From an uncultured Candidatus Saccharibacteria bacterium (GTDB lineage: Bacteria > Patescibacteriota > Minisyncoccia > Phycocordibacterales > UBA12088): DNA of 64,000 nucleotides. Of this stretch, positions 2,508 to 54,483 are shown piece after piece; position 1 is the first letter of the stretch; each line of letters begins with the position of its first letter. The stretch covers positions 89,300 through 153,299 of the forward strand of contig CAZLUD010000002.1 in assembly GCA_964562615.1 (NCBI GenBank), in the 5' to 3' direction. A program made the translations under genes and the position numbers. The notes under the pieces are model-generated. The model was not told where the DNA came from. It searched no databases and was given only the letters and a program-made list of their open reading frames with translations.

Positions 2508-3596
2508 CTAGTGTACTATGAACCCGCCTCCAACACACCGTGTATTGTCGTATAAGACGAGTGCCTGCCCCTCGGGGATGTGCGGTATTGGTGTTTCTAG
2601 GCTTACCGTGGCACTTTCTTTCGTTACAGAGGCAATAGTGCAAGGAAATAACGTTTGTCTGTGGCGCAATCTTGCCTGTAGCGTGTCTCCAACTGAAGGG
2701 GTCGCATTTATCCAATTTGCCTCGGTAATACTAATCTTATGATGATCATATTGTGGAGTAAGGTACCCAACTTCATCACTTACGACTAAAATATTTTTTT
2801 CTACATCTTTACTAACCACAAAGTATGGTTGTTGATTATGAGAATGAGTCTTCGCTGTAAACCCATGCCGTTGTCCAACAGTATAAAAAAGAGCTCCATC
2901 ATGTGTACCAATCTCCTCACCGTGTTGATTGACCACCACCCCCTGCGTAGCGGTGACAAAATGTGACAAAAATTCTTTAAGGTCTATATGTCCAACAAAA
3001 CATAATCCTTGGCTATCTTTACGTGCAGCACTAGGAAGATGTACTGCTGCAGCCATTTCGCGTACCGCATCTTTGGTCATGTGCCCAATTGGAAATATGA
3101 TGTGTGAGAGTTGTGCCTGGGTGAGTGTCCAAAGAAAGTATGTCTGATCCTTGTTTTCATCAACACTTCTATGCAACTCGTACTCGTCTGTGCTTGTATT
3201 CAGCCTTCTTTGTGCGTAGTGGCCAGTTGCTACCGCGTCAAATCCTTTTAGAAGTGCATGAGAAAGAAATGCGCCAAACTTCACTTCTTTGTTGCATAGC
3301 ACGTCTGGATTTGGTGTCTTTCCGGCACGGTACGCTGAAATCATATAGTCAACCACTTCCCTTTTGTACGTATCAGCAAGGTCAATAGTACTGCATGGTA
3401 CATCAAGGTGCGCAGCGACCTTGATGGCATCTTTTCTGTCCTGCTCTTGTGAGCATGGCAAAAAGTCAGGTTGCCAGACTTTTATAAAACCAGCATGTAC
3501 ATCACTCCCTGCTTCTTTGAGTAAATACGCAGAAAGCGAGGAGTCTACTCCCCCAGATAGTCCTACCATTATTTTGCTCGCACCTATTTTTGACAT
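2508..3596 (-). CDS. mnmA: tRNA-specific 2-thiouridylase MnmA
   Basis: PP-loop 'VGLSGGVDSS' plus the 'NPDVLCNKEVKFGAF' and 'KDQTYFLW' motifs. The length of 362 aa is typical. Confidence 0.9.
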   Translation of the reverse strand: MSKIGASKIMVGLSGGVDSSLSAYLLKEAGSDVHAGFIKVWQPDFLPCSQEQDRKDAIKVAAHLDVPCSTIDLADTYKREVVDYMISAYRAGKTPNPDVLCNKEVKFGAFLSHALLKGFDAVATGHYAQRRLNTSTDEYELHRSVDENKDQTYFLWTLTQAQLSHIIFPIGHMTKDAVREMAAAVHLPSAARKDSQGLCFVGHIDLKEFLSHFVTATQGVVVNQHGEEIGTHDGALFYTVGQRHGFTAKTHSHNQQPYFVVSKDVEKNILVVSDEVGYLTPQYDHHKISITEANWINATPSVGDTLQARLRHRQTLFPCTIASVTKESATVSLETPIPHIPEGQALVLYDNTRCVGGGFIVH

Positions 3597-12527: not shown

Positions 12528-12573
12528 TAATAAAAGAAGTACACCCCCTCTATTGCAAGCAATAGAGGGGGTG
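12528..12573 (-). terminator. Rho-independent terminator
   Basis: CACCCCCTCTATTGC / GCAATAGAGGGGGTG inverted repeat followed on the minus strand by a T-rich tract. Confidence 0.7.
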
Positions 12574-21246: not shown

Positions 21247-21577
21247 TAGCGATAGTCTTGATCAAGTGATGTGGTAGGGCGATAGTATATGAATAAGTAT
21301 ACTCATATCACGAATTCTTCATACCCCCATAGCACGACTATAGGCAATTTCGACATGCTTATACGCTAGTCGTGATATGGATTTGGTACGTTTTTTTGAC
21401 ATATGTCAATGTTTGTGCTTCTTCATTTTTCTTTAATGATATCCTTGAAAGTGCTCGTACTAGTATCTGCTTGCCTACTATTTTTGTATCAAACTGCATA
21501 GGATATACCCTTCCATGTGAGTTGAAGACGTATAAACCCCTCTGTACGTATCCATAGCTTCAGAAGCGCATTCCCAT

Positions 21578-24500
21578 CTATGGTTGAGGCGCCTCTGCTG
21601 GACCCTCATCAGCACCTTCTCCAGCAGACACTATCACGGTACGGGTGCTAGTTGCAGTATTGCCAGTTAGATCCCTCGCTACATAGGTTATGATATGCTC
21701 CATCACTTGTGTGGTATCAATTTGCACCGCGGTGACTTCTGTACCTAGGTAGTACGTGCGAAGGGTGGCGATACCACTATCATCAGTAGCAACAGCGCCA
21801 AGGTCGGCATAACTTTCCCCTACAGTAAGTAGTGCCGGGTTGTTTCCTTGCATGATTATGATCGGTGCAGTGGTATCTGCTGGCAATTCCTCGGGTGTAT
21901 CATCTTGCTCAGTACCCCCAGAATCATCACCAGTTGAGCCATTTTGTGACCCTTCTTCTCTAAGCAAAAGAAGTTCTTGAAGGTCGCTCTCAGTGATGCA
22001 GGTGTCCCCGATACAGAGGCGCTCTTTCACATACACCACATTTGCCGTAAATATATTTATGGTTAGTTCAGTGACTTGCGATAGTACTCTACGCACACTC
22101 TCAACAAACCATGACGGTTCACTACCAGACTGTAGCAGGTCAAAATTACTTTGATGTTCCTTCACTACTGCTGATAGCACCGCGGTTATTTCGGCATAGT
22201 GTACCGAGCGTGGCGAGCCATCGGTGTCACGCGCAACAAGCCTTGGCTCTATGGTTTCTATTTGCTCGGCGATAAAACCAAGTCGAGGCTCGTTAGTGCC
22301 ATTGTATTTAAATGATACTGGTTCAATACCTAATACTATTCTTTTTGCTTCTTCAGTTGTGAGTGTTTCAATATCGTGCTTAAACTGTGCGGATGATACC
22401 GTACAGTTAGAGGTGCCGGTGTTAACCACCATCTCTTTACTTGCAGACAGACACAATGCGGATGGCGTACCCGCTGCCGCGGTTAATCCATTTATTGCAA
22501 CTCCACCCTCAACTGAAAGTTTTTTCCATGGACTCGTCGTCCCGATGCCGACGTTGCCGCTCGAATTTATATTGATACCCCTTACGCTACCGTACCCGTC
22601 CCCACCTGTCGTAATTTGCAAACTATCAGTGGAGTGTAGGTATGAGATAATTCCCGCATATTGGGACGCTCCATCCGAGAAGAAAATGTTCGAGCGGGTC
22701 GCACCGGCAATGGTAACGCCATTGCTACCCGAAGCGGTTCCAATTGTGAGGTTATCAGTGTCTGCGTATGACCATGGACTCGTCGTCCCAATGCCGACGT
22801 TGCCCGTGTTTCTACTTATAAACATATCATCAGTATTTAAATCAGCCCCGCCATAATTTCTTCTGAAAACTAATCCATCAGCAGTAGGGTCATATCCAAG
22901 TCCCACATATGGGACATAACCCACACCATCAAACGAGATATATTCTCCGCTTGCATCATAACCAAATCCCAATTTATGTATTGGCCCCGTCGTCCCAATG
23001 CCGACGTTGCCGCTCGTTGGGTTTAATAATGTATTGTTTCCTTGACTATTTATTTTCAATGGTTTAGACGCCCAGCTTTGTATGTAGTTATAGCTCGCAT
23101 CACTACCAAACGAAAGATTATCAACAGTCTGATTTCTTAACATAAATCCATAGCTTGCATTTGTTCCGTCAGTGGTATTAGCAGCTTGATTTATTGTAAG
23201 CAGGTTTCCTGGCGCCGTCGTCCCAATGCCGACGTTGCCGCCGTTTGGCTGTAATGTGAGTGGTCTGTTCGTCCAACTTACCCCATCTGAAAAAGACTGG
23301 ATGTAGGAGTAATCTCCTGAAGCAGATGCGCCAAGCGCAAGTTCTGAATCTAATGAAGCTGAAAGTATAGAAAGACCAAAGCTGCCTTCTGCTGGAGTAC
23401 CATCTTTAAAAATTTGCAGCTTCTCCTGCGGCGCACTCGTCCCGATGCCGACGTTGCCGTCTGTTTTTACATAGAGACCCGCATTACCAAACTGATAATT
23501 CGTACCATCAAAGTATAGATAATTGCTTGAACTATCACCAAAGTAGTAAGCGCCAGTATTAGATGAACGACGTGCAACAATGTCACCAGCAACGCCTGAC
23601 CCTCCACTGTTGGCACCTACCCGCAGGTAACCGGTAACAAGAGCATTTCCGCTCACCTCAAGCTTCTGATTAGGTGCCGTCGTCCCGATGCCGACGTTGC
23701 CGTTCGTATCTATTCTGACCTTTTCCGTTCCCGTCGTAACAAACGCCAATTCTGTCTGAGAAGAATTGTTGTGAATACCATAAATGCCGGAAAATTGATT
23801 TGCCCCGGCGTCCATATTAAACGTCAAACCCAAATGTGCGTAAGTCCCGTTACCTGCCGCTAATCCCGTGTCCAACGCTATCCCTTTATTCTTTGACCCA
23901 GTCGGAGTAAACGCAGCGTTCTGATAATCGCTCGTAACATACAATTTGGAAGCCGGACTCGTCGTCCCCACCCCCACATTCCCCGTCGCTCTGTACACAT
24001 TGCCACCAGAGAGGGTCCAGTTCCCCACCGTGGCACCAGCAACAAGCGCACCATTCCAGTAGAGGGAGGAGGCATTGTTGTATAGGCGGTTGGTGGTAGC
24101 AAGAGGAGTGGATGAGGCAAGGAAGAGTGAACCAGTCACTGAGGCATCTCCAGAAACTGAGAGCGTACTCCAGGGGGTGGTGGTACCAATACCAAGATTG
24201 CTTCCGGTGAAAGAGAAGAGAGGGGTGGTTGCGATTTGTTTTGAAGCGTTAGTGAAGAGGACTGAAGAGGGAGATTGGGTAGCGAGGGTGGTGGTACCAC
24301 TAAGGACAGAGAGTGTGGAGGTGCCGGTAGCGGTGTATCCCACAATGGTGGGGTTGTTGAGAGTGACAGACGAGAGAGAACCACCGGTGATGGTAGGGTT
24401 TGTGATGACGGCAGAGGGTATCTGCACTCCCACAGAGAGGTTGTCTATCTTCTGGGTGAGTCCCCAGACGGGAGTCGAGGGTGGCTGGTATGAGGAGTAG

Positions 24501-25531
24501 GTGCCATAGCCGGTGAAGGTAGTGGCGGTTTGTGTGGGGAGAGTGTTTAGTTTTGTGGTGAGGAGAGCAAGAGATGATTCGAGGAAGGAGATGCGACTCA
24601 AGAGGTCGGTGTTGTTTGCTTCTATGGTGATGTACTCTGGGGTCACCACTCGTTCAACCACTCGTGTTGGTGCTTGTGGAGGGAGAGGTGTGGGAGCAGA
24701 GCTGGTCTTCTTTTGTGGTACCTGTCCTGCGCTTGTTGAAGGGGTGGGAGGAGTGGTCTCTTTGATGCGCTCTTCGACAGGGACAAAGGTGGTTGGGGTG
24801 GGAGTTGGTGTGACGGGAGTCTCCTCTTCCTTGCAGGTGTTGAGTCCTAGAGTGTTGTTCACAAAGCAGAAGAAAGAGACTGCCGTCTCTGACAGAGAGG
24901 CAGCTCCTAGCTGGGTGGTGTTTTCTTGTGCGAGGAGGTAGATGAGTTCTCCGGTGGTGCTGTCTATTGCCACGCCAAGGGCTTGTGGGATGTTGGTGAG
25001 GGTGGTATCCACTCCTTTGGTGAAGGATTCACCTACCTTGGTATAGGTCTCTTTTGGAGAGAAAGAGAAGAGTGATGTGAAGAAACTGTCTATGTGAGTT
25101 GCTATGGTGTCCTTCACTGAAGGAGGGGTGTCAGAGAGGTATGAAGATGCGCCTGCTACCCATGGAGCAAGGACAAACATGACAATGCAAAAGAGGGTGG
25201 TGCGCATGGTGTGCAAAGAGACGTATGAGGCATCTCGGTGTTCGATTAAGAAATCATCAATCGACATAGTATCAATGAGCTGCTCCTCCGCCACAGAAGG
25301 AAAGCCTGCCTCAACCGCGCCAAGTAGTTTTACCTCACTAAACAAATGCGTAGGAATGAGCTTTCCGGTATGGTCCTTTTGAATAAATCCTGCATCAATA
25401 AGTTTAGTGACTAGTGAAAACGCCGCATTTTTAGATGCATATCCCATAAGGTCTGCTATCTCTCGGTAGCTAGGCATCCGTTTATGGGTGTAGTAAAAAT
25501 CTAGAATCTTTTTTCCTTCTCCTTGTGTCAT
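21578..25531 (-). CDS. Giant membrane/surface protein of 1317 aa. An N-terminal LexA-like DNA-binding domain and cleavage-site linker is followed by a signal-anchor/TM helix, a Pro/Thr-rich stalk, about eight tail-fibre-like 'GNVGIGTT(S/A)P' repeats, a Peptidase-S74 intramolecular-chaperone domain and a DUF5011-like Ig domain.
   Basis: aa 8-108 align with E. coli LexA 5-125. 'MPSYREIADLMGYASKNAAFSLVTKLIDAGFI' matches '[33 protein letters not shown]', 'LLGAVEAGFPSVAEEQ' matches 'LVGRVAAGEPLLAQQH', and 'VSLHTM' matches 'VSGMSM'. The LexA catalytic domain is absent. aa 109-130 'MRTTLFCIVMFVLAPWVAGASS' is a signal-peptide-like segment (nt 25142-25207). The S74-like segment near nt 22148-22393 reads 'FKHDIETLTTEEAKRIVLGIEPVSFKYNGT...RLGFIAEQIETIEPRLV...RSVHYAEITAVLSAVVKEHQ'. 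The Ig-like domain lies near nt 21632-21868. An alternative start at M109 (ATG 25207) would give a conventional secreted protein. Neither start has a clear SD. Confidence 0.7.
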   Translation of the reverse strand: MTQGEGKKILDFYYTHKRMPSYREIADLMGYASKNAAFSLVTKLIDAGFIQKDHTGKLIPTHLFSEVKLLGAVEAGFPSVAEEQLIDTMSIDDFLIEHRDASYVSLHTMRTTLFCIVMFVLAPWVAGASSYLSDTPPSVKDTIATHIDSFFTSLFSFSPKETYTKVGESFTKGVDTTLTNIPQALGVAIDSTTGELIYLLAQENTTQLGAASLSETAVSFFCFVNNTLGLNTCKEEETPVTPTPTPTTFVPVEERIKETTPPTPSTSAGQVPQKKTSSAPTPLPPQAPTRVVERVVTPEYITIEANNTDLLSRISFLESSLALLTTKLNTLPTQTATTFTGYGTYSSYQPPSTPVWGLTQKIDNLSVGVQIPSAVITNPTITGGSLSSVTLNNPTIVGYTATGTSTLSVLSGTTTLATQSPSSVLFTNASKQIATTPLFSFTGSNLGIGTTTPWSTLSVSGDASVTGSLFLASSTPLATTNRLYNNASSLYWNGALVAGATVGNWTLSGGNVYRATGNVGVGTTSPASKLYVTSDYQNAAFTPTGSKNKGIALDTGLAAGNGTYAHLGLTFNMDAGANQFSGIYGIHNNSSQTELAFVTTGTEKVRIDTNGNVGIGTTAPNQKLEVSGNALVTGYLRVGANSGGSGVAGDIVARRSSNTGAYYFGDSSSNYLYFDGTNYQFGNAGLYVKTDGNVGIGTSAPQEKLQIFKDGTPAEGSFGLSILSASLDSELALGASASGDYSYIQSFSDGVSWTNRPLTLQPNGGNVGIGTTAPGNLLTINQAANTTDGTNASYGFMLRNQTVDNLSFGSDASYNYIQSWASKPLKINSQGNNTLLNPTSGNVGIGTTGPIHKLGFGYDASGEYISFDGVGYVPYVGLGYDPTADGLVFRRNYGGADLNTDDMFISRNTGNVGIGTTSPWSYADTDNLTIGTASGSNGVTIAGATRSNIFFSDGASQYAGIISYLHSTDSLQITTGGDGYGSVRGININSSGNVGIGTTSPWKKLSVEGGVAINGLTAAAGTPSALCLSASKEMVVNTGTSNCTVSSAQFKHDIETLTTEEAKRIVLGIEPVSFKYNGTNEPRLGFIAEQIETIEPRLVARDTDGSPRSVHYAEITAVLSAVVKEHQSNFDLLQSGSEPSWFVESVRRVLSQVTELTINIFTANVVYVKERLCIGDTCITESDLQELLLLREEGSQNGSTGDDSGGTEQDDTPEELPADTTAPIIIMQGNNPALLTVGESYADLGAVATDDSGIATLRTYYLGTEVTAVQIDTTQVMEHIITYVARDLTGNTATSTRTVIVSAGEGADEGPAEAPQP
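22534..24205 (-). repeat. Intragenic tandem repeats of ~225-245 bp (8 units) encoding the GNVGIGTT(S/A)P motif
   Basis: The near-identical 24-nt core CGTCGTCCCAATGCCGACGTTGCC recurs at 22534, 22780, 22988, 23216, 23436 and 23678. Diverged copies occur at 23956 and 24182. Confidence 0.85.
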
Positions 25532-25544
25532 GGGCTTAGTATAC

Positions 25545-25558
25545 TGAACGAACGTTCA
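25545..25558. promoter_or_regulatory. SOS-box-like palindrome (GAAC-N4-GTTC, Cheo-box type) in the divergent promoter of the LexA-domain gene
   Basis: TGAACGAACGTTCA lies 14 nt upstream of the ATG of the LexA-like ORF, immediately next to the self-complementary AGTATACT (a TATACT -10-like hexamer on both strands). Confidence 0.5.
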
Positions 25559-25589
25559 CTATACAACTGTGGATAAGTAGCAGCCCATT

Positions 25590-25844
25590 TTGCTGAGTAT
25601 TCCACTCGATTCCCTTGCTCAATATGAGAGACGTGCCACACTAGAGGTATTACTCAATAAGCTATGTAATCGTATGGGAGAACATTATGTATGTACGGGC
25701 GGTTGTGAAGGAGTATCACCAAAGCAAACAACATGCGGAGCACCCGAGTGTCCAAAGCACGACACCCCCCTTACCGCTTGTTCATGTGTTGATGGTATGC
25801 ACCTAGAGGCATACGAAAAAGATGAAAAGGATGGGGCAATGTAA
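25590..25844 (+). CDS. Small Cys-rich hypothetical protein (7 Cys in 84 aa)
   Basis: Contains 'CTGGCEGVSPKQTTCGAPECPKHDTPLTACSC'. It is divergent from the giant gene. Confidence 0.4.
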   Translation: MLSIPLDSLAQYERRATLEVLLNKLCNRMGEHYVCTGGCEGVSPKQTTCGAPECPKHDTPLTACSCVDGMHLEAYEKDEKDGAM

Positions 25845-25864
25845 CATTTGGTATACTCTTATAT

Positions 25865-26431
25865 ATGATACTGACTACGAAGCAACAGCTCTTACTTGGA
25901 TTATTAGTGATTATTGGGATATTGGCAATTGTATTCTACTTTCCAGGTCCAAAGACGTGGCTCGAAAAAAAGCTTAACAAAAAACCTGATAGTGCGATCA
26001 CTACCTTTGAAGAATGCGCAAAGTACTATCCGGTTCTTGAGTCATATCCAGAGAGATGCTCTACCAAAAGCGGCGCATCTTTTACAAGAGACATTGGTAA
26101 TGAACTAGAAAAAGCAGATCTCATCAAAAGTACTACCCCTCGCCCAGGAGACACTATAATGAATCCACTTGTCATAGAGGGAGAGGCACGTGGGTATTGG
26201 TTTTTTGAAGCGACTGCGCCTGTTGAGTTGTACAACAATAGTGGAGTACAAATAGCGAGCGGATACATTGAAGCGCAAGGCGAATGGATGACTGAAGACT
26301 TTGTGCCGTATACCGGAACACTCGACTTTCCACCTGCAGCCTCTGGTAGTGGCTACCTCCTTATCAAAAAGGCAAATGCTTCTGGACTACCAGAGCATGA
26401 TGACTCACTTAGCATTCCGGTAGTCTTTTAA
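25865..26431 (+). CDS. Membrane-anchored protein with a Gmad2-type Ig-like domain
   Basis: N-terminal TM helix LLLGLLVIIGILAIVFYF. The segment 'PLVIEGEARGYWFFEATAPVELYNNSGVQIASGYIEAQGEWMTEDFVPYTGTLDF' resembles the GerMN/Gmad2 Ig-like fold. Confidence 0.5.
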   Translation: MILTTKQQLLLGLLVIIGILAIVFYFPGPKTWLEKKLNKKPDSAITTFEECAKYYPVLESYPERCSTKSGASFTRDIGNELEKADLIKSTTPRPGDTIMNPLVIEGEARGYWFFEATAPVELYNNSGVQIASGYIEAQGEWMTEDFVPYTGTLDFPPAASGSGYLLIKKANASGLPEHDDSLSIPVVF

Positions 26432-26433
26432 CC

Positions 26434-27087
26434 ATGAGCAAAAAGACACTACACAACGCTATCGCTATTGTTTCTTCACTTGTATTTGTGTACCTGATGT
26501 GGTCAGGCTCAATCACCCTTACCGAGGACACCACAAAGGAACCGCTCCATGACCAAGGTGCCGTAGTTGCAGAATACGCAACCACACCCGATGAGGCAGA
26601 AGAAGACACTACTTTTGCCCCCACTACGGTGAGTGAGGCCTCATTTCCAAAAATCACTACCGTCATGCGCGTAATAGATGGCGATACGTTTGTAGTATCT
26701 ATGAATGACAAGCCGGTAACTGTACGACTCTTAGGAATAGACACCCCTGAGACAGTACATCCAAATAAACCAGTTGAATGCTTTGGGAGAGAGGCATCAG
26801 AATATCTTACCTACCTCATTAATCAGCACGAGCTAGTGTTGGTTCTTGATCCTACGCAAGGCGCCTATGATAAATACGGCAGACTACTTGCGTATGCGTA
26901 TCTTCCTGATGGACGAAGCGTAAATGAGATACTACTACGAGATGGTTTTGCGTATGAGTACCTGTACCAAACCCCCTACGAGTTACATGATAGGTACGTT
27001 GCTATAGAACAAAAGGCAATTGATGCAAAACGAGGCTTGTGGGCAGAAGGTGTGTGTCAACAAGAAGAATCGTTAGAGGTACAATAA
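26434..27087 (+). CDS. Membrane-anchored thermonuclease (staphylococcal nuclease homologue)
   Basis: TM anchor followed by the SNase core 'VIDGDTFVVSMNDKPVTVRLLGIDTPE' and 'YGRLLAYAY...NEILLRDGFA'. Confidence 0.85.
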   Translation: MSKKTLHNAIAIVSSLVFVYLMWSGSITLTEDTTKEPLHDQGAVVAEYATTPDEAEEDTTFAPTTVSEASFPKITTVMRVIDGDTFVVSMNDKPVTVRLLGIDTPETVHPNKPVECFGREASEYLTYLINQHELVLVLDPTQGAYDKYGRLLAYAYLPDGRSVNEILLRDGFAYEYLYQTPYELHDRYVAIEQKAIDAKRGLWAEGVCQQEESLEVQ

Positions 27088-27091
27088 TCAC

Positions 27092-27325
27092 ATGACAAAT
27101 TTCAGCGACATCACCATACTAGACATATTTGGCACCTCGCCTATGGGAGCTGCCTTTAATATTGTGGCATTTGTATTTGTGGTGTTTAGCTTGTTGTTTG
27201 TATATCACCTGACTAAATACAGTGTCGGCAATGCCGTCATGAGTACCGCGCTTCTTGTATATTTTGGCGTAGCAGGGTTTCTTTTTTTTGTACTCATCAT
27301 TAGTATGTCCAGTATTGCATCATGA
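27092..27325 (+). CDS. Small 2-TM membrane protein
   Basis: 77 aa and hydrophobic. It overlaps the downstream gene by 4 nt. Confidence 0.35.
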   Translation: MTNFSDITILDIFGTSPMGAAFNIVAFVFVVFSLLFVYHLTKYSVGNAVMSTALLVYFGVAGFLFFVLIISMSSIAS

Positions 27326-27939
27326 TACATTTAGGCCCCGATGAAAGAATAATAACCACCGCGCGCAAACATATATTTGTGCTCATTGGTGAATTGTTAC
27401 CAGTCGGTGTACTTCTTGCTGTGCCCTTTCTGGTACTTCCCTTTATTCCTGAATCAGTGTCACTCTCTCGCTTTATTCCTTCTGAAGAAGAAATAATTGT
27501 GGCAGTGTCCATCGATAATGCGGTTATAGTATTTAGCCTTGCGATATGGACATTGCTGTTATGGATGCGAATGTTTTGGATATGGATCGACTACTATCTT
27601 GATGTATGGATAATTACCAATCATCGATTAATCGATATTGAGCAAAAGGGATTTTTTAACAGAAATGTTGCCAATGTTCGACTTGATTTTATACAAGATG
27701 TTACCTACGAGATACGCGGTGTTATCGCCTCACTATTAAATTTTGGCAGCATCGAGATACAGACAGCCGGAGAAACACGCCACTTTACCCTCCACGGTGT
27801 CTCCCACCCAGAAAGATTGCGTGATACGTTGGTACAAATAAAAGCTGAAGAGAAGAAAGGAGTATCGGGGGTAAGCGGAGTTGAGTTTGAAGAGGATGAT
27901 GAATTCAATCGAATGATTAACCGTGATGTGGATGAATAG
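27322..27939 (+). CDS. Membrane protein with a bacterial PH domain (YdbT/DUF304-like)
   Basis: Two TM helices followed by 'YLDVWIITNHRLIDIEQKGFFNRNV...IEIQTAGE'. Confidence 0.6.
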   Translation: MIHLGPDERIITTARKHIFVLIGELLPVGVLLAVPFLVLPFIPESVSLSRFIPSEEEIIVAVSIDNAVIVFSLAIWTLLLWMRMFWIWIDYYLDVWIITNHRLIDIEQKGFFNRNVANVRLDFIQDVTYEIRGVIASLLNFGSIEIQTAGETRHFTLHGVSHPERLRDTLVQIKAEEKKGVSGVSGVEFEEDDEFNRMINRDVDE

Positions 27940-28684
27940 CATCTTCTAGAGTAAGGTCGCCTACTTTTGTACGCACAATACTAAATGCAAGCGCAGGCAC
28001 ACCAAGCGCGTCCCCTATCTCCTTTACCAGCTCTCGCATATAGGCTCCACTACCGCACGTCACGATGATTTCAGCAAGAGGAAACGTTTTGTTCGATAGC
28101 TTTCTGAGAGTGTCGTCCCAAACTGCTTTAATTTTTTCTTGTCTAAAGTCTCCGGTAACACGTGCGCAAGCGGCATCAACTAGTGACTGTATGTCTTGCA
28201 CCCCAATCGAAGAAGATGCGGTAAGGGTTATAGAGTTGATGGTAATTGTATGCGTAGGCAATTCTACTTGAACACCATTTCTTCCGTATTCATGGAGCTG
28301 CTTGCCCTCAACTGTTTTTGAAGAAAAGAGTGGATATGATTGCTCACGAGTCCCTACTAAACCATTAAGCACAGAAAGAAGTGTGACGAGTGATGGTGCT
28401 GATACCTGCTCTACCTTTTCTAATACACCAAGGACATCAGCAGTGTCTGTAGAAAAGCCAAAGAGTATCTGCACTCGATATTCCTTTGGAAGTGCTGTTA
28501 TCGTGTCTTTCTTGTGTACTGCTTCTCCAAAAAGGATTGGTAGTACTCCCTCAGCAAGTGGATCAAGCCTCCCTGCGTATGTTGCCTTAATATCTGCATA
28601 CTCGGGGTGCAATTGCACATACGCATGAAGACACTCTTTTGGCGTCTCGAATCGCTCTTTGTATAGGTTCACCATATTGTCCAT
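27917..28684 (-). CDS. truB: tRNA pseudouridine(55) synthase TruB
   Basis: Catalytic 'GRLDPLAEGVLPILFGEAVHK' and C-terminal 'CGSGAYMRELVKEIGDALGVPA'. The start is set at the internal Met (MDNMVNLY) because the longer ORF would overlap hisS. Confidence 0.8.
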   Translation of the reverse strand: MDNMVNLYKERFETPKECLHAYVQLHPEYADIKATYAGRLDPLAEGVLPILFGEAVHKKDTITALPKEYRVQILFGFSTDTADVLGVLEKVEQVSAPSLVTLLSVLNGLVGTREQSYPLFSSKTVEGKQLHEYGRNGVQVELPTHTITINSITLTASSSIGVQDIQSLVDAACARVTGDFRQEKIKAVWDDTLRKLSNKTFPLAEIIVTCGSGAYMRELVKEIGDALGVPALAFSIVRTKVGDLTLEDAIHPHHG

Positions 28685-28706
28685 ATTTGCTACAATGAAC
28701 CTCATC

Positions 28707-30023
28707 ATGAAAGAAAACGCAAGCCACATAAGCAAAGAGCCATACAAGGGGGTAAGAGATTTCTATCCTGAGGATATGCGCGTTATGCGATATATCACCG
28801 AAGTGATGCGTACAAGCGCTGAAGCCTTTGGCTACGAAGAATACACCGCCTCGGTACTTGAAAGCGCAGAACTGTATGAAGCAAAAAGCGGAGAAGAGAT
28901 GGTAACTAACGAAACCTATACCTTTATTGATCGTGGTGAACGGCGTGTTACCCTTCGCCCTGAAATGACCCCTACCGTGGCTCGCATGATAGCTGCCAAG
29001 CGCAAGGAGCTTATGTTTCCACTACGCTGGTACTCTATACCTAACTTGTTTAGATATGAACGTCCACAACGTGGCCGTCTTCGAGAACACTGGCAACTAA
29101 ATTGCGATTTGTTTGGAGCTAAAAGCATTGCCGCTGATGCAGAAATACTGCTTCTTGCCTCTACCATCATGAAAAAGTTTGGTGCCAAAGAAGAGGATTT
29201 TGAAATTCGCATCAACCATCGAAGTCTCATGAACTCACTCTTTGATGATGTGCTATCTCTAGAGACAGATGCTCGCTACAAACTTGCAAAACTTCTTGAT
29301 AAAAAAGAAAAAATATCCAAAGAAGAATTTCTTAATGAGCTCACGGTACTTATCCCAGAAAAAGCAACCATGCTCAGTCATATGCTTGAAGCAAAAACAC
29401 TTGATGAGTTTTTGCAACATTCACCACTTCTTAGCTCATCAGAAGGTGCGCAGGATGTTCTTTCATTACTTGCACACCTCAGCACTCTCTCACTTCATAA
29501 TGTACGATTTGTACCTACCCTCATGCGTGGCTTTGACTACTACAACGGCATGGTCTTTGAGGTGTTTGATACCAATCCAGAAAACAGACGCTCTATTTTT
29601 GGTGGAGGAAGATATGATCACCTTGTAGACATATTTGGGGTAGAGAGTGTTCCTGCTGTTGGATTTGGCATGGGTGATGTCACTATTGCTGATTTTTTGA
29701 CTACGCATGATTTGCTTCCGGCATTCTCATCAGCACATCAATTGTATATTGCCACCGTTACCGAAGGAGATATTGCTTTTGCACACACCCTTGCAACAAA
29801 CCTAAGAGCAAGCGGGATCAATGTGTTGGTAAATGTCACCAACAAAAAACTAGGCGAGCAAGTATCGTACGCAGCAAAAAAATCTATCCCATTTGTGCTC
29901 ACCGTAGGAGAAAACGAACGTGCGCAACACGCCTATCCGCTTAAAAATATGCTCACCAAAGAAGAGTGTGTGGTATCAATAGAAGACGTTGCTTCCCTAT
30001 TACTCAATACAACCACCAACTAG
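28707..30023 (+). CDS. hisS: Histidine--tRNA ligase
   Basis: 'KGVRDFYPEDM', 'RYERPQRGRLREHWQ', 'GGGRYD', and a C-terminal anticodon-binding domain. The start is taken at MKEN. Confidence 0.9.
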   Translation: MKENASHISKEPYKGVRDFYPEDMRVMRYITEVMRTSAEAFGYEEYTASVLESAELYEAKSGEEMVTNETYTFIDRGERRVTLRPEMTPTVARMIAAKRKELMFPLRWYSIPNLFRYERPQRGRLREHWQLNCDLFGAKSIAADAEILLLASTIMKKFGAKEEDFEIRINHRSLMNSLFDDVLSLETDARYKLAKLLDKKEKISKEEFLNELTVLIPEKATMLSHMLEAKTLDEFLQHSPLLSSSEGAQDVLSLLAHLSTLSLHNVRFVPTLMRGFDYYNGMVFEVFDTNPENRRSIFGGGRYDHLVDIFGVESVPAVGFGMGDVTIADFLTTHDLLPAFSSAHQLYIATVTEGDIAFAHTLATNLRASGINVLVNVTNKKLGEQVSYAAKKSIPFVLTVGENERAQHAYPLKNMLTKEECVVSIEDVASLLLNTTTN

Positions 30024-30624: not shown

Positions 30625-30650
30625 AGGACCCCCGTTGTAACGGGGGTCCT
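30625..30650. terminator. Bidirectional rho-independent terminator
   Basis: AGGACCCCCGTT/AACGGGGGTCCT hairpin between convergent genes. Confidence 0.7.
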
Positions 30651-54413: not shown

Positions 54414-54483
54414 AAAAATCAGGCGCTTACGCGCCTGATTTTTAAAAGAAACTAGCCCATCACATACAGAAGTGGTGGGCTAG
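54414..54483. terminator. Tandem terminator hairpins between convergent genes
   Basis: AAAAATCAGGCGC-ttac-GCGCCTGATTTTT, then CTAGCCCATCAC...GTGGTGGGCTAG immediately after the pyrF stop. Confidence 0.7.

Follow-up and report, generated by a model that had tools for sequence, protein, structure and literature searches.

A probable ancestral lexA operator in front of a lexA remnant fused to a surface-protein gene in a Patescibacteria genome

Introduction

The operator recognized by LexA (DinR) in Bacillus subtilis and other Gram-positives, also known as the Cheo box, has the form CGAAC-N4-GTTCG. In E. coli, RecA-stimulated autocleavage of LexA leaves an N-terminal fragment, LexA 1-84, and the N-terminal domain alone retains weak specific operator binding. 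In Patescibacteria, lexA is reportedly autoregulated via a LexA-binding motif in its own promoter. The SOS network of Patescibacteria was the subject of a study (Sanchez-Osuna, Barbe & Erill 2017, Environ Microbiol 19:3465) that is cited in passages of PMC8565304 and PMC7739468, and the E. coli uvrB promoter has been described as being under joint control by DnaA and LexA (PMC6015884).

Here we analyze a predicted LexA operator in a 64-kb stretch of Patescibacteria DNA, the whole of which we call the window. Judged by its sequence, the box is an ordinary, cleanly documented SOS operator of the Gram-positive type in a CPR bacterium. It shares with the Cheo box a palindromic GAAC-N4-GTTC core, a free N4 and an overlap with the core promoter of lexA itself (autoregulation), but it differs in its T/A flanks (TGAAC...GTTCA), in a lineage-specific GTATAC extension on both sides and in a predicted location exactly in the spacer of a leaderless promoter. 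The loci compared here belong to the same superphylum as the Patescibacteria SOS network, and 35 of them yield the putative operator motif GAAC-N4-GTTC; unlike in that network, the lexA of the window is cut at codon 104 and fused to a surface-protein gene. Its product resembles E. coli LexA 1-84 in having a winged helix-turn-helix and linker with no dimerisation domain, and weak operator binding may be expected by analogy. In contrast to LexA 1-84, however, the truncation is genetic, lies ~20 residues past the cleavage site, and joins the DNA-binding domain to a predicted signal anchor and a 1200-aa extracellular protein. From M109 onward the window ORF has the same layout as S74 tail-fibre-like proteins, mostly from Patescibacteria, but differs from the relatives compared in its LexA N-terminal extension.

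Results

The predicted operator lies inside the core promoter of the LexA-like ORF. TGAACGAACGTTCA occupies 25545-25558, where an earlier note on this DNA had placed it, with the GAAC-N4-GTTC core GAACGAACGTTC at 25546-25557 (read from the window sequence). We predict that this palindrome, which has no strand, is a LexA operator (SOS box) of the form TGAAC-N4-GTTCA, based on its motif and on conservation at lexA in relatives. The accompanying TATACT/AGTATA element is equally real: on the minus strand it reads TATACT from 25543 to 25538 and forms the predicted -10 hexamer in the promoter of lexA; the ATG lies 6 nt farther on (sequence reading). A predicted -35 hexamer, TTGTAT (TTGACA in most relatives), lies on the minus strand at 25561-25566, 17 nt from the -10, and the SOS box fills the 17-nt spacer of this predicted sigma70-type promoter (TTGTAT-17-TATACT). 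The distance of 14 nt given earlier between box and start codon is roughly right, the exact count being 13 nt between the box and the ATG at 25531. Since the ATG comes 6 nt after the -10, the lexA mRNA is predicted to be leaderless. A complete rpoD is encoded within the window.

As a separate observation, the window genome is essentially without Shine-Dalgarno sequences, and a TATACT-like hexamer stands 6-8 nt before the ATG at many window genes (e.g. 25865, 35651, 52231 and 58558). This pattern suggests that leaderless mRNAs are widespread in the window genome, a genome-wide habit that the leaderless lexA promoter fits.

The SOS box forms the centre of an extended imperfect palindrome of 26 nt, GTATACTGAACG/CGTTCACTATAC (25539-25564, no strand), whose arms are complementary at 11/12 positions and whose second arm overlaps the predicted -35 hexamer (25566 to 25561). 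In three relatives (L001-L003) the extended palindrome is perfect (11+4+11), and the window carries one flank substitution. Palindromes of 26 nt and of this quality number 4 in the window vs 0.17 in shuffles. The hairpin energy of the palindrome region, computed as DNA, is unremarkable (z -1.9), and Rfam matched no RNA family within the window. The remaining three 26-nt palindromes (12545-12570, 30625-30650 and 54416-54441) are GC-rich, perfect or near-perfect, and intergenic; they are probably transcription terminators. Another palindrome, AGTATA-CTTATTCA-TATACT (AGTATACTTATTCATATACT, ~21290-21309), which precedes the PD-(D/E)XK gene, was considered as a LexA site and rejected: its flanks are operator-like, though the GAAC/GTTC core is absent, and it may be a mere promoter element.

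The frequency of the motif does not contribute to this assignment. The 64 kb contain a single GAAC-N4-GTTC where 0.98 are expected, at least one match appears in 66/100 shuffles, and degenerate matches with up to 2 mismatches are not enriched but, if anything, depleted across the 64-kb window (21 vs 34.6 expected). Because the motif occurs at chance rate, its count lends no support to an operator, and the case is made by position and conservation. The window holds this single box, and neither recA, uvrA, dinB nor any other classical SOS gene was found in its 64 kb.

The box is conserved at lexA in other genomes. In lexA orientation, the window reads TTATCCACA-g-TTGTAT-agt-GAAC-GTTC-GTTC-ag-TATACT-aagccc-ATG, L001 reads TTATCCACA-c-TTGTAT-act-GAAC-GAAC-GTTC-ag-TATACT-gtttgcac-ATG, and L002 and L003 both read TTATCCACA-c-TTGTAT-act-GAAC-GCTC-GTTC-ag-TATACT-tataac-ATG. 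These three closest loci, all syntenic with the window, have GTATACTGAAC-N4-GTTCAGTATAC before an intact 191-aa lexA, with identical arms; the N4 varies by lineage (GTTC in the window, GAAC in L001, GCTC in L002/L003), and DNA farther upstream is not alignable. In such an alignment, fixed arms around a variable N4 are the signature of a putative dimer-binding operator. A wider set of 80 lexA loci came from a scan of species-representative genomes with a 6-sequence alignment, the window's own genome not being among them. A perfect GAAC-N4-GTTC lies at most 450 nt upstream of lexA in 32/80 of these loci (species level), mostly Patescibacteria, and together with L001-L003 they make up most of the Patescibacteria loci in the scan. 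The geometry of -35, box and -10 is identical in all 35 other lexA promoters, and the promoter consensus aligned on the box (n=36) is TTGaca-ngt-GAACnnnnGTTC-ac-TATAcT. The ATG follows 14-16 nt past the box and 6-7 nt past the -10 in ~20 other lexA loci, and the window has the same geometry. From lineage to lineage, moreover, the three bases beside one half-site change in symmetry with those beside the other (ggt/acc, tta/taa and act/agt).

The earlier note had proposed conservation in orthologous loci as a check on the box, which is indeed found before lexA in L001-L003 and in 32 more species; core, lexA-promoter position and conservation all agree with its reading of the site as a putative Cheo-type LexA operator. 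An alternative is that the palindrome arose by chance, derives from the promoter as an inverted repeat (two facing -10-like hexamers), or serves an unrelated regulator. The chance-rate occurrence of the core in the window is compatible with this alternative, as are arms whose TATAC hexamers double as promoter elements. We nevertheless regard it as extremely improbable, given that the core is invariant in 35 lexA promoters of different species, with N4 and surroundings varying, and that a perfect site is expected only ~0.008 times per 500-nt upstream region. Elsewhere, L001 has no LexA box before its IMS polymerase gene, and a JGI metagenome scan with the operator and DnaA-box DNA pattern returned no match.

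A DnaA-box-like element recurs upstream of these promoters. In the window, the 9-mer TTATCCACA (TTWTNCACA) lies on the minus strand at 25568-25576, 1 nt upstream of the predicted -35; by sequence it is a consensus DnaA box, and the window has no other exact copy. Allowing up to one mismatch, it occurs before 18/35 other lexA promoters, 7 of them exact (counted in lexA orientation over the 58 nt preceding the LexA box), compared with 0.4% of random windows and 1/41 other leaderless-type promoters of the same loci. Copies in other loci lie at L001 6169-6177, L005 3032-3040, L023 5700-5708, L028 5658-5666, L030 5927-5935 and L039 5897-5905. As in E. coli uvrB, a DnaA-type box and a LexA box share one SOS promoter; unlike at uvrB, the combination stands at lexA itself, in many Patescibacteria species, and consists of a single consensus 9-mer 0-20 nt upstream of the predicted -35 hexamer of the LexA-box promoter. 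We found no report in the literature of joint DnaA/LexA control at lexA promoters. The recurrence of the 9-mer suggests that DnaA may co-regulate lexA in Patescibacteria.

The gene behind the operator retains only the first half of lexA. The ORF at 21578-25531 (minus strand, 1317 aa) carries in codons 1-104 (25220-25531, minus strand) a winged helix-turn-helix, a linker, the Ala75-Gly76 cleavage site and the first strands of the C-terminal domain. Residues 1-104 are 89% identical to the intact 191-aa LexA P0001 and 79% identical to P0002 (tblastn; match confined to 1-104), both of which carry Peptidase_S24. At this level of identity and at a syntenic position, the N-terminal similarity to LexA is genuine and not due to chance, in agreement with the earlier note. 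All of the relatives matched (21/21) are LexA-like, and all but two short fragments are S24-domain proteins of 170-196 aa. Family models match the N-terminus weakly (TIGR00498 partial, E 2.4e-6; Pfam PF01726 LexA_DNA_bind, E 0.011, below threshold), Pfam on the whole 1317-aa ORF gave no LexA domain at E<=0.01, and a PDB sequence search gave no useful match.

The self-cleavage site A75-G76, within VEAGFP, is present and is invariant in the alignment. The Ser/Lys dyad (S111 and K148), invariant in relatives, is absent from the window ORF, which at the G-D-S-M catalytic position reads L-H-T-M and then continues into a signal peptide. LexA residues 105-191 had no tblastn match anywhere in the window, other frames included, and Pfam found no S24 domain in the window ORF. 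Because this domain is absent, the ORF is a lexA remnant and not a LexA family member. The proposal of a functional, autoregulated regulator is therefore not supported: only LexA 1-104 is kept, and the S24 half with the Ser/Lys dyad is missing in the window. Since the operator came along with the 5' half of lexA from an ancestor whose gene was intact, the box is no proof of a working autoregulated repressor.

What remains of lexA shows no decay. The remnant has neither frameshift nor stop, and its branch has acquired only 2 unambiguous amino-acid changes, E39S and A42T, which lie in the recognition helix at positions variable among relatives. Its undecayed state implies either that the event is recent or that the segment has been retained, and the data fit both equally. 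By analogy with the isolated E. coli domain, the N-terminal fragment may exert some residual autoregulation. A search with residues 1-108 against 1.84 billion cluster representatives found 429 relatives at E<=0.001, and among the best 150 of these 429 only the window protein has a long extension after the LexA N-terminal domain; this singleton architecture argues that, among those 150, there is no family of such fusions. A 99-aa protein with only a LexA N-terminus (P0021) was rejected as a second natural truncation, its contig being frameshift-ridden with many split genes. At L090 5001-5484, lexA is split into ORFs of 99 and 72 aa by an assembly frameshift artefact.

Comparison with relatives places a recombination junction at 25208-25221 (minus strand), as defined by DNA alignment with L001 and L002 and found identical in L084-L088. 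Nucleotide homology to lexA stops at ~25221/25220, followed by the 13 nt CTCTTTGCACACC and then by the surface-protein ATG, in frame with lexA. L001, which carries P0002, matches the window in gene order along one side of lexA (RNase H-like, HisRS, TruB, bPH_2, a small ORF, SNase, Gmad2 and the small Cys-rich gene); beyond lexA it has a Y-family polymerase (IMS), a Big_13 protein and a histidine kinase. Left of the junction, the window instead has the surface-protein gene, a PD-(D/E)XK protein, an ORF of no known function and an RND efflux pair. By tblastx, L001 is colinear with the window from 30604 down to 25220, with nothing past it. This colinearity and the end of homology at 25220 locate a rearrangement breakpoint inside lexA, 13 nt before the surface-protein ATG. 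The event may have been a deletion, an inversion or a translocation.

The same junction is found in independent data sets. The neighbouring Gmad2 protein, used as a query, recovered 11 contigs from such data sets. Two of them encode the chimera, reading 1.2 kb (L085, JGI metagenome 3300043411) and 0.6 kb (L088, Logan assembly, SRR35185575) through the junction, and three from further Logan runs (L084, L086 and L087) include the junction and end nine codons later. The junction is identical in these five independent assemblies (1 JGI metagenome and 4 Logan runs), which come from two pipelines, are 99.6-100% identical to the window and differ among themselves by SNPs elsewhere.

One could propose that the fusion of lexA and surface-protein gene is an assembly chimera and that the true genome has a normal lexA. 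Logan assemblies use k = 31 (PMC12424806). All three shorter Logan contigs end at window position 25191, exactly 30 nt (k-1) past the end of lexA homology, as expected at a branch of the assembly graph. However, these contigs already include the junction, the two longer ones read through it, and the same junction was assembled at least five times independently, from different data sets, by two pipelines and in strains with SNP differences elsewhere, which makes an assembly chimera very unlikely. The shared contig end suggests that, in those samples, the sequence running downstream from 25220 occurs behind a second upstream neighbour as well. For instance, a co-occurring strain may carry the surface-protein gene in its native context; the same pattern would arise from a polymorphism at 25190. 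Among the five strains, no SNP occurs across 24598-28417, which covers the lexA remnant with its promoter and four genes downstream. Each contig has 4-19 SNPs, and these cluster in the TruB/HisRS region (28418-30000), except for one in L085 at 24597; the SNP-free stretch may reflect a recent sweep or a recombination tract. A JGI metagenome scan with the surface-protein N-terminus gave no match.

The second partner of the fusion is a gene for a tail-fibre-like surface protein, 1209 aa from M109 (21578-25207, minus strand), assigned by Pfam and homologues. From M109 the product opens with a signal peptide (MRTTLFCIVMFVLAPWVAGA|SS) and a Pro/Thr-rich linker, followed by GNVGIGTT repeats, a Peptidase_S74 intramolecular chaperone domain (PF13884, E 7e-8, ORF residues 1046-1099) and a C-terminal Ig-like domain (PF16403, ORF residues 1227-1301). 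It has 114 relatives, mostly Patescibacteria, many of them named 'tail fiber domain-containing protein'. The complete relatives compared (3/3) start with their own signal peptide, which matches M109 MRTTLF..., and M109 (nt 25207) is therefore the native start of the surface-protein gene. A LexA N-terminal extension was found in none of the relatives compared. Internal repeats of 25-45 nt (22500-23720, the GNVGIGTT motifs) break short-read assemblies, the left-side contigs L091-L093 ending there, and in the allele P0023 (JGI) identical flanks enclose a different central part. This allele, together with the contig breaks in the repeats, indicates that the surface-protein gene is variable in the population.

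Small genes also accompany lexA in some lineages. On the other side of the promoter, a divergent gene (25675-25844, plus strand) encodes a 56-aa Cys-rich protein (MGEHYVCTGGC...C...C..H...C.C) that matches no Pfam or NCBIfam family and starts at the conserved ATG 25675, not at TTG 25590. It is conserved beside lexA, in divergent orientation, only in the window lineage and L001-L003, and with so narrow a distribution nothing supports a role as a general SOS partner. Separately, a conserved ORF of 65-70 aa lies between the LexA-box promoter and lexA in seven species (L005 ~3095-3300, L011, L013, L015, L017, L023 and L028); the window lineage does not have it. The ORF shows the motif E-I-x3-N-x2-ID-x-KII-x-G-x-Y-x2-E-x2-RH-K/R-x-L and ends in a hydrophobic C-terminus. 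Its product is a candidate small membrane protein under SOS control, perhaps a division inhibitor.

Discussion

We consider it highly probable that the box is the ancestral autoregulatory operator of a Patescibacteria (CPR) lexA that now breaks off at codon 104 and runs into a surface-protein gene, and that the box is now a relic unless an intact lexA lies elsewhere. In relatives with an intact lexA, a LexA dimer would bind TGAAC-N4-GTTCA. Because the box fills the spacer between -35 and -10, bound LexA would exclude RNA polymerase, and RecA-stimulated self-cleavage at A75-G76 by S111/K148 would relieve the repression. This scheme draws on the geometry of the site and on established LexA biology, to which the present data add motif, position and conservation. 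In the window lineage, a rearrangement linked lexA codon 104 to a site 13 nt ahead of the surface-protein start codon, and the locus lost both the dimerisation/cleavage domain and the downstream Y-family polymerase gene seen in L001. Operator and promoter would now drive the chimeric 1317-aa ORF, whose product would have neither S24-mediated dimerisation nor self-cleavage. Without a second intact lexA, the box is probably a relic that retains weak function at best.

A second, intact lexA elsewhere would keep the operator fully functional and would make the fusion a new DNA-damage-inducible member of the SOS regulon. The window covers 64 kb of a contig of at least 237 kb, and a second lexA or recA may lie outside it; the box core is intact, and the promoter region is invariant among five strains. 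We nevertheless think this unlikely. No second LexA-like sequence occurs in the window, the 5' half of lexA continues in Logan contigs one way only, into the fusion, and small CPR genomes would usually carry one lexA or none. Were such a lexA present outside the window, regulation of the operator would persist.

Returning to the probable relic operator and its fused gene, translation most likely begins at the lexA ATG, since the genome is leaderless and free of Shine-Dalgarno sequences and M109 has neither a promoter nor an upstream stop. The internal signal sequence would then serve as a signal anchor, and cleavage after AGA may export the surface protein, leaving behind a membrane-bound LexA stub of ~130 aa; we infer all three steps (start at the lexA ATG, signal anchor and AGA cleavage).

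The same features would also suit a functional chimera, in which a membrane-tethered LexA DNA-binding domain autoregulates its promoter and couples surface-protein export to transcription. This possibility, which is closest to the idea of the earlier note, is consistent with an in-frame fusion, an intact winged helix-turn-helix with its conserved residues, a hydrophobic segment (112-128) that by sequence reading would anchor the N-terminal domain at the membrane, probable translation from M1 and a remnant free of SNPs among five strains. We find it doubtful, and somewhat more so than a second lexA. The dimerisation domain is missing, the junction falls 4 codons before the canonical start and signal peptide, as would be the case for an accidental join, and the architecture is a singleton among the best 150 of 429 LexA N-terminal relatives. 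Furthermore, the fusion is restricted to a single cluster of strains, which share 99.6-100% identity with the window, and lexA is normal in the nearest relatives.

More tentatively, the two elements upstream of lexA can be read together. In this possible though less favoured scenario, Patescibacteria lexA promoters would take two inputs, through a LexA box in the spacer and a DnaA box, so that replication-initiation status and DNA damage together determine how much of the SOS master regulator is made; in the window lineage, such a promoter would have been captured by a surface-protein gene after loss of the regulatory domain and would be translated as a chimera of LexA DNA-binding domain and signal anchor.

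These results bear first on annotation: the label that suits the ORF is lexA remnant joined to the gene of a tail-fibre-like protein, rather than regulator. They also carry a caution, in that from a conserved operator it does not follow that a working repressor is still encoded behind it. In a population that turns up in many metagenomes, lexA lacks its sensor/dimerisation half, and with that half lost SOS control may be constitutively open or lost. Two leads follow for the biology of these bacteria. A surface adhesin-like gene now stands behind a lexA promoter, and Patescibacteria lexA promoters share a leaderless geometry and a recurrent DnaA-box-like element, which leads to the hypothesis that replication control and the SOS response may be coupled in reduced genomes.
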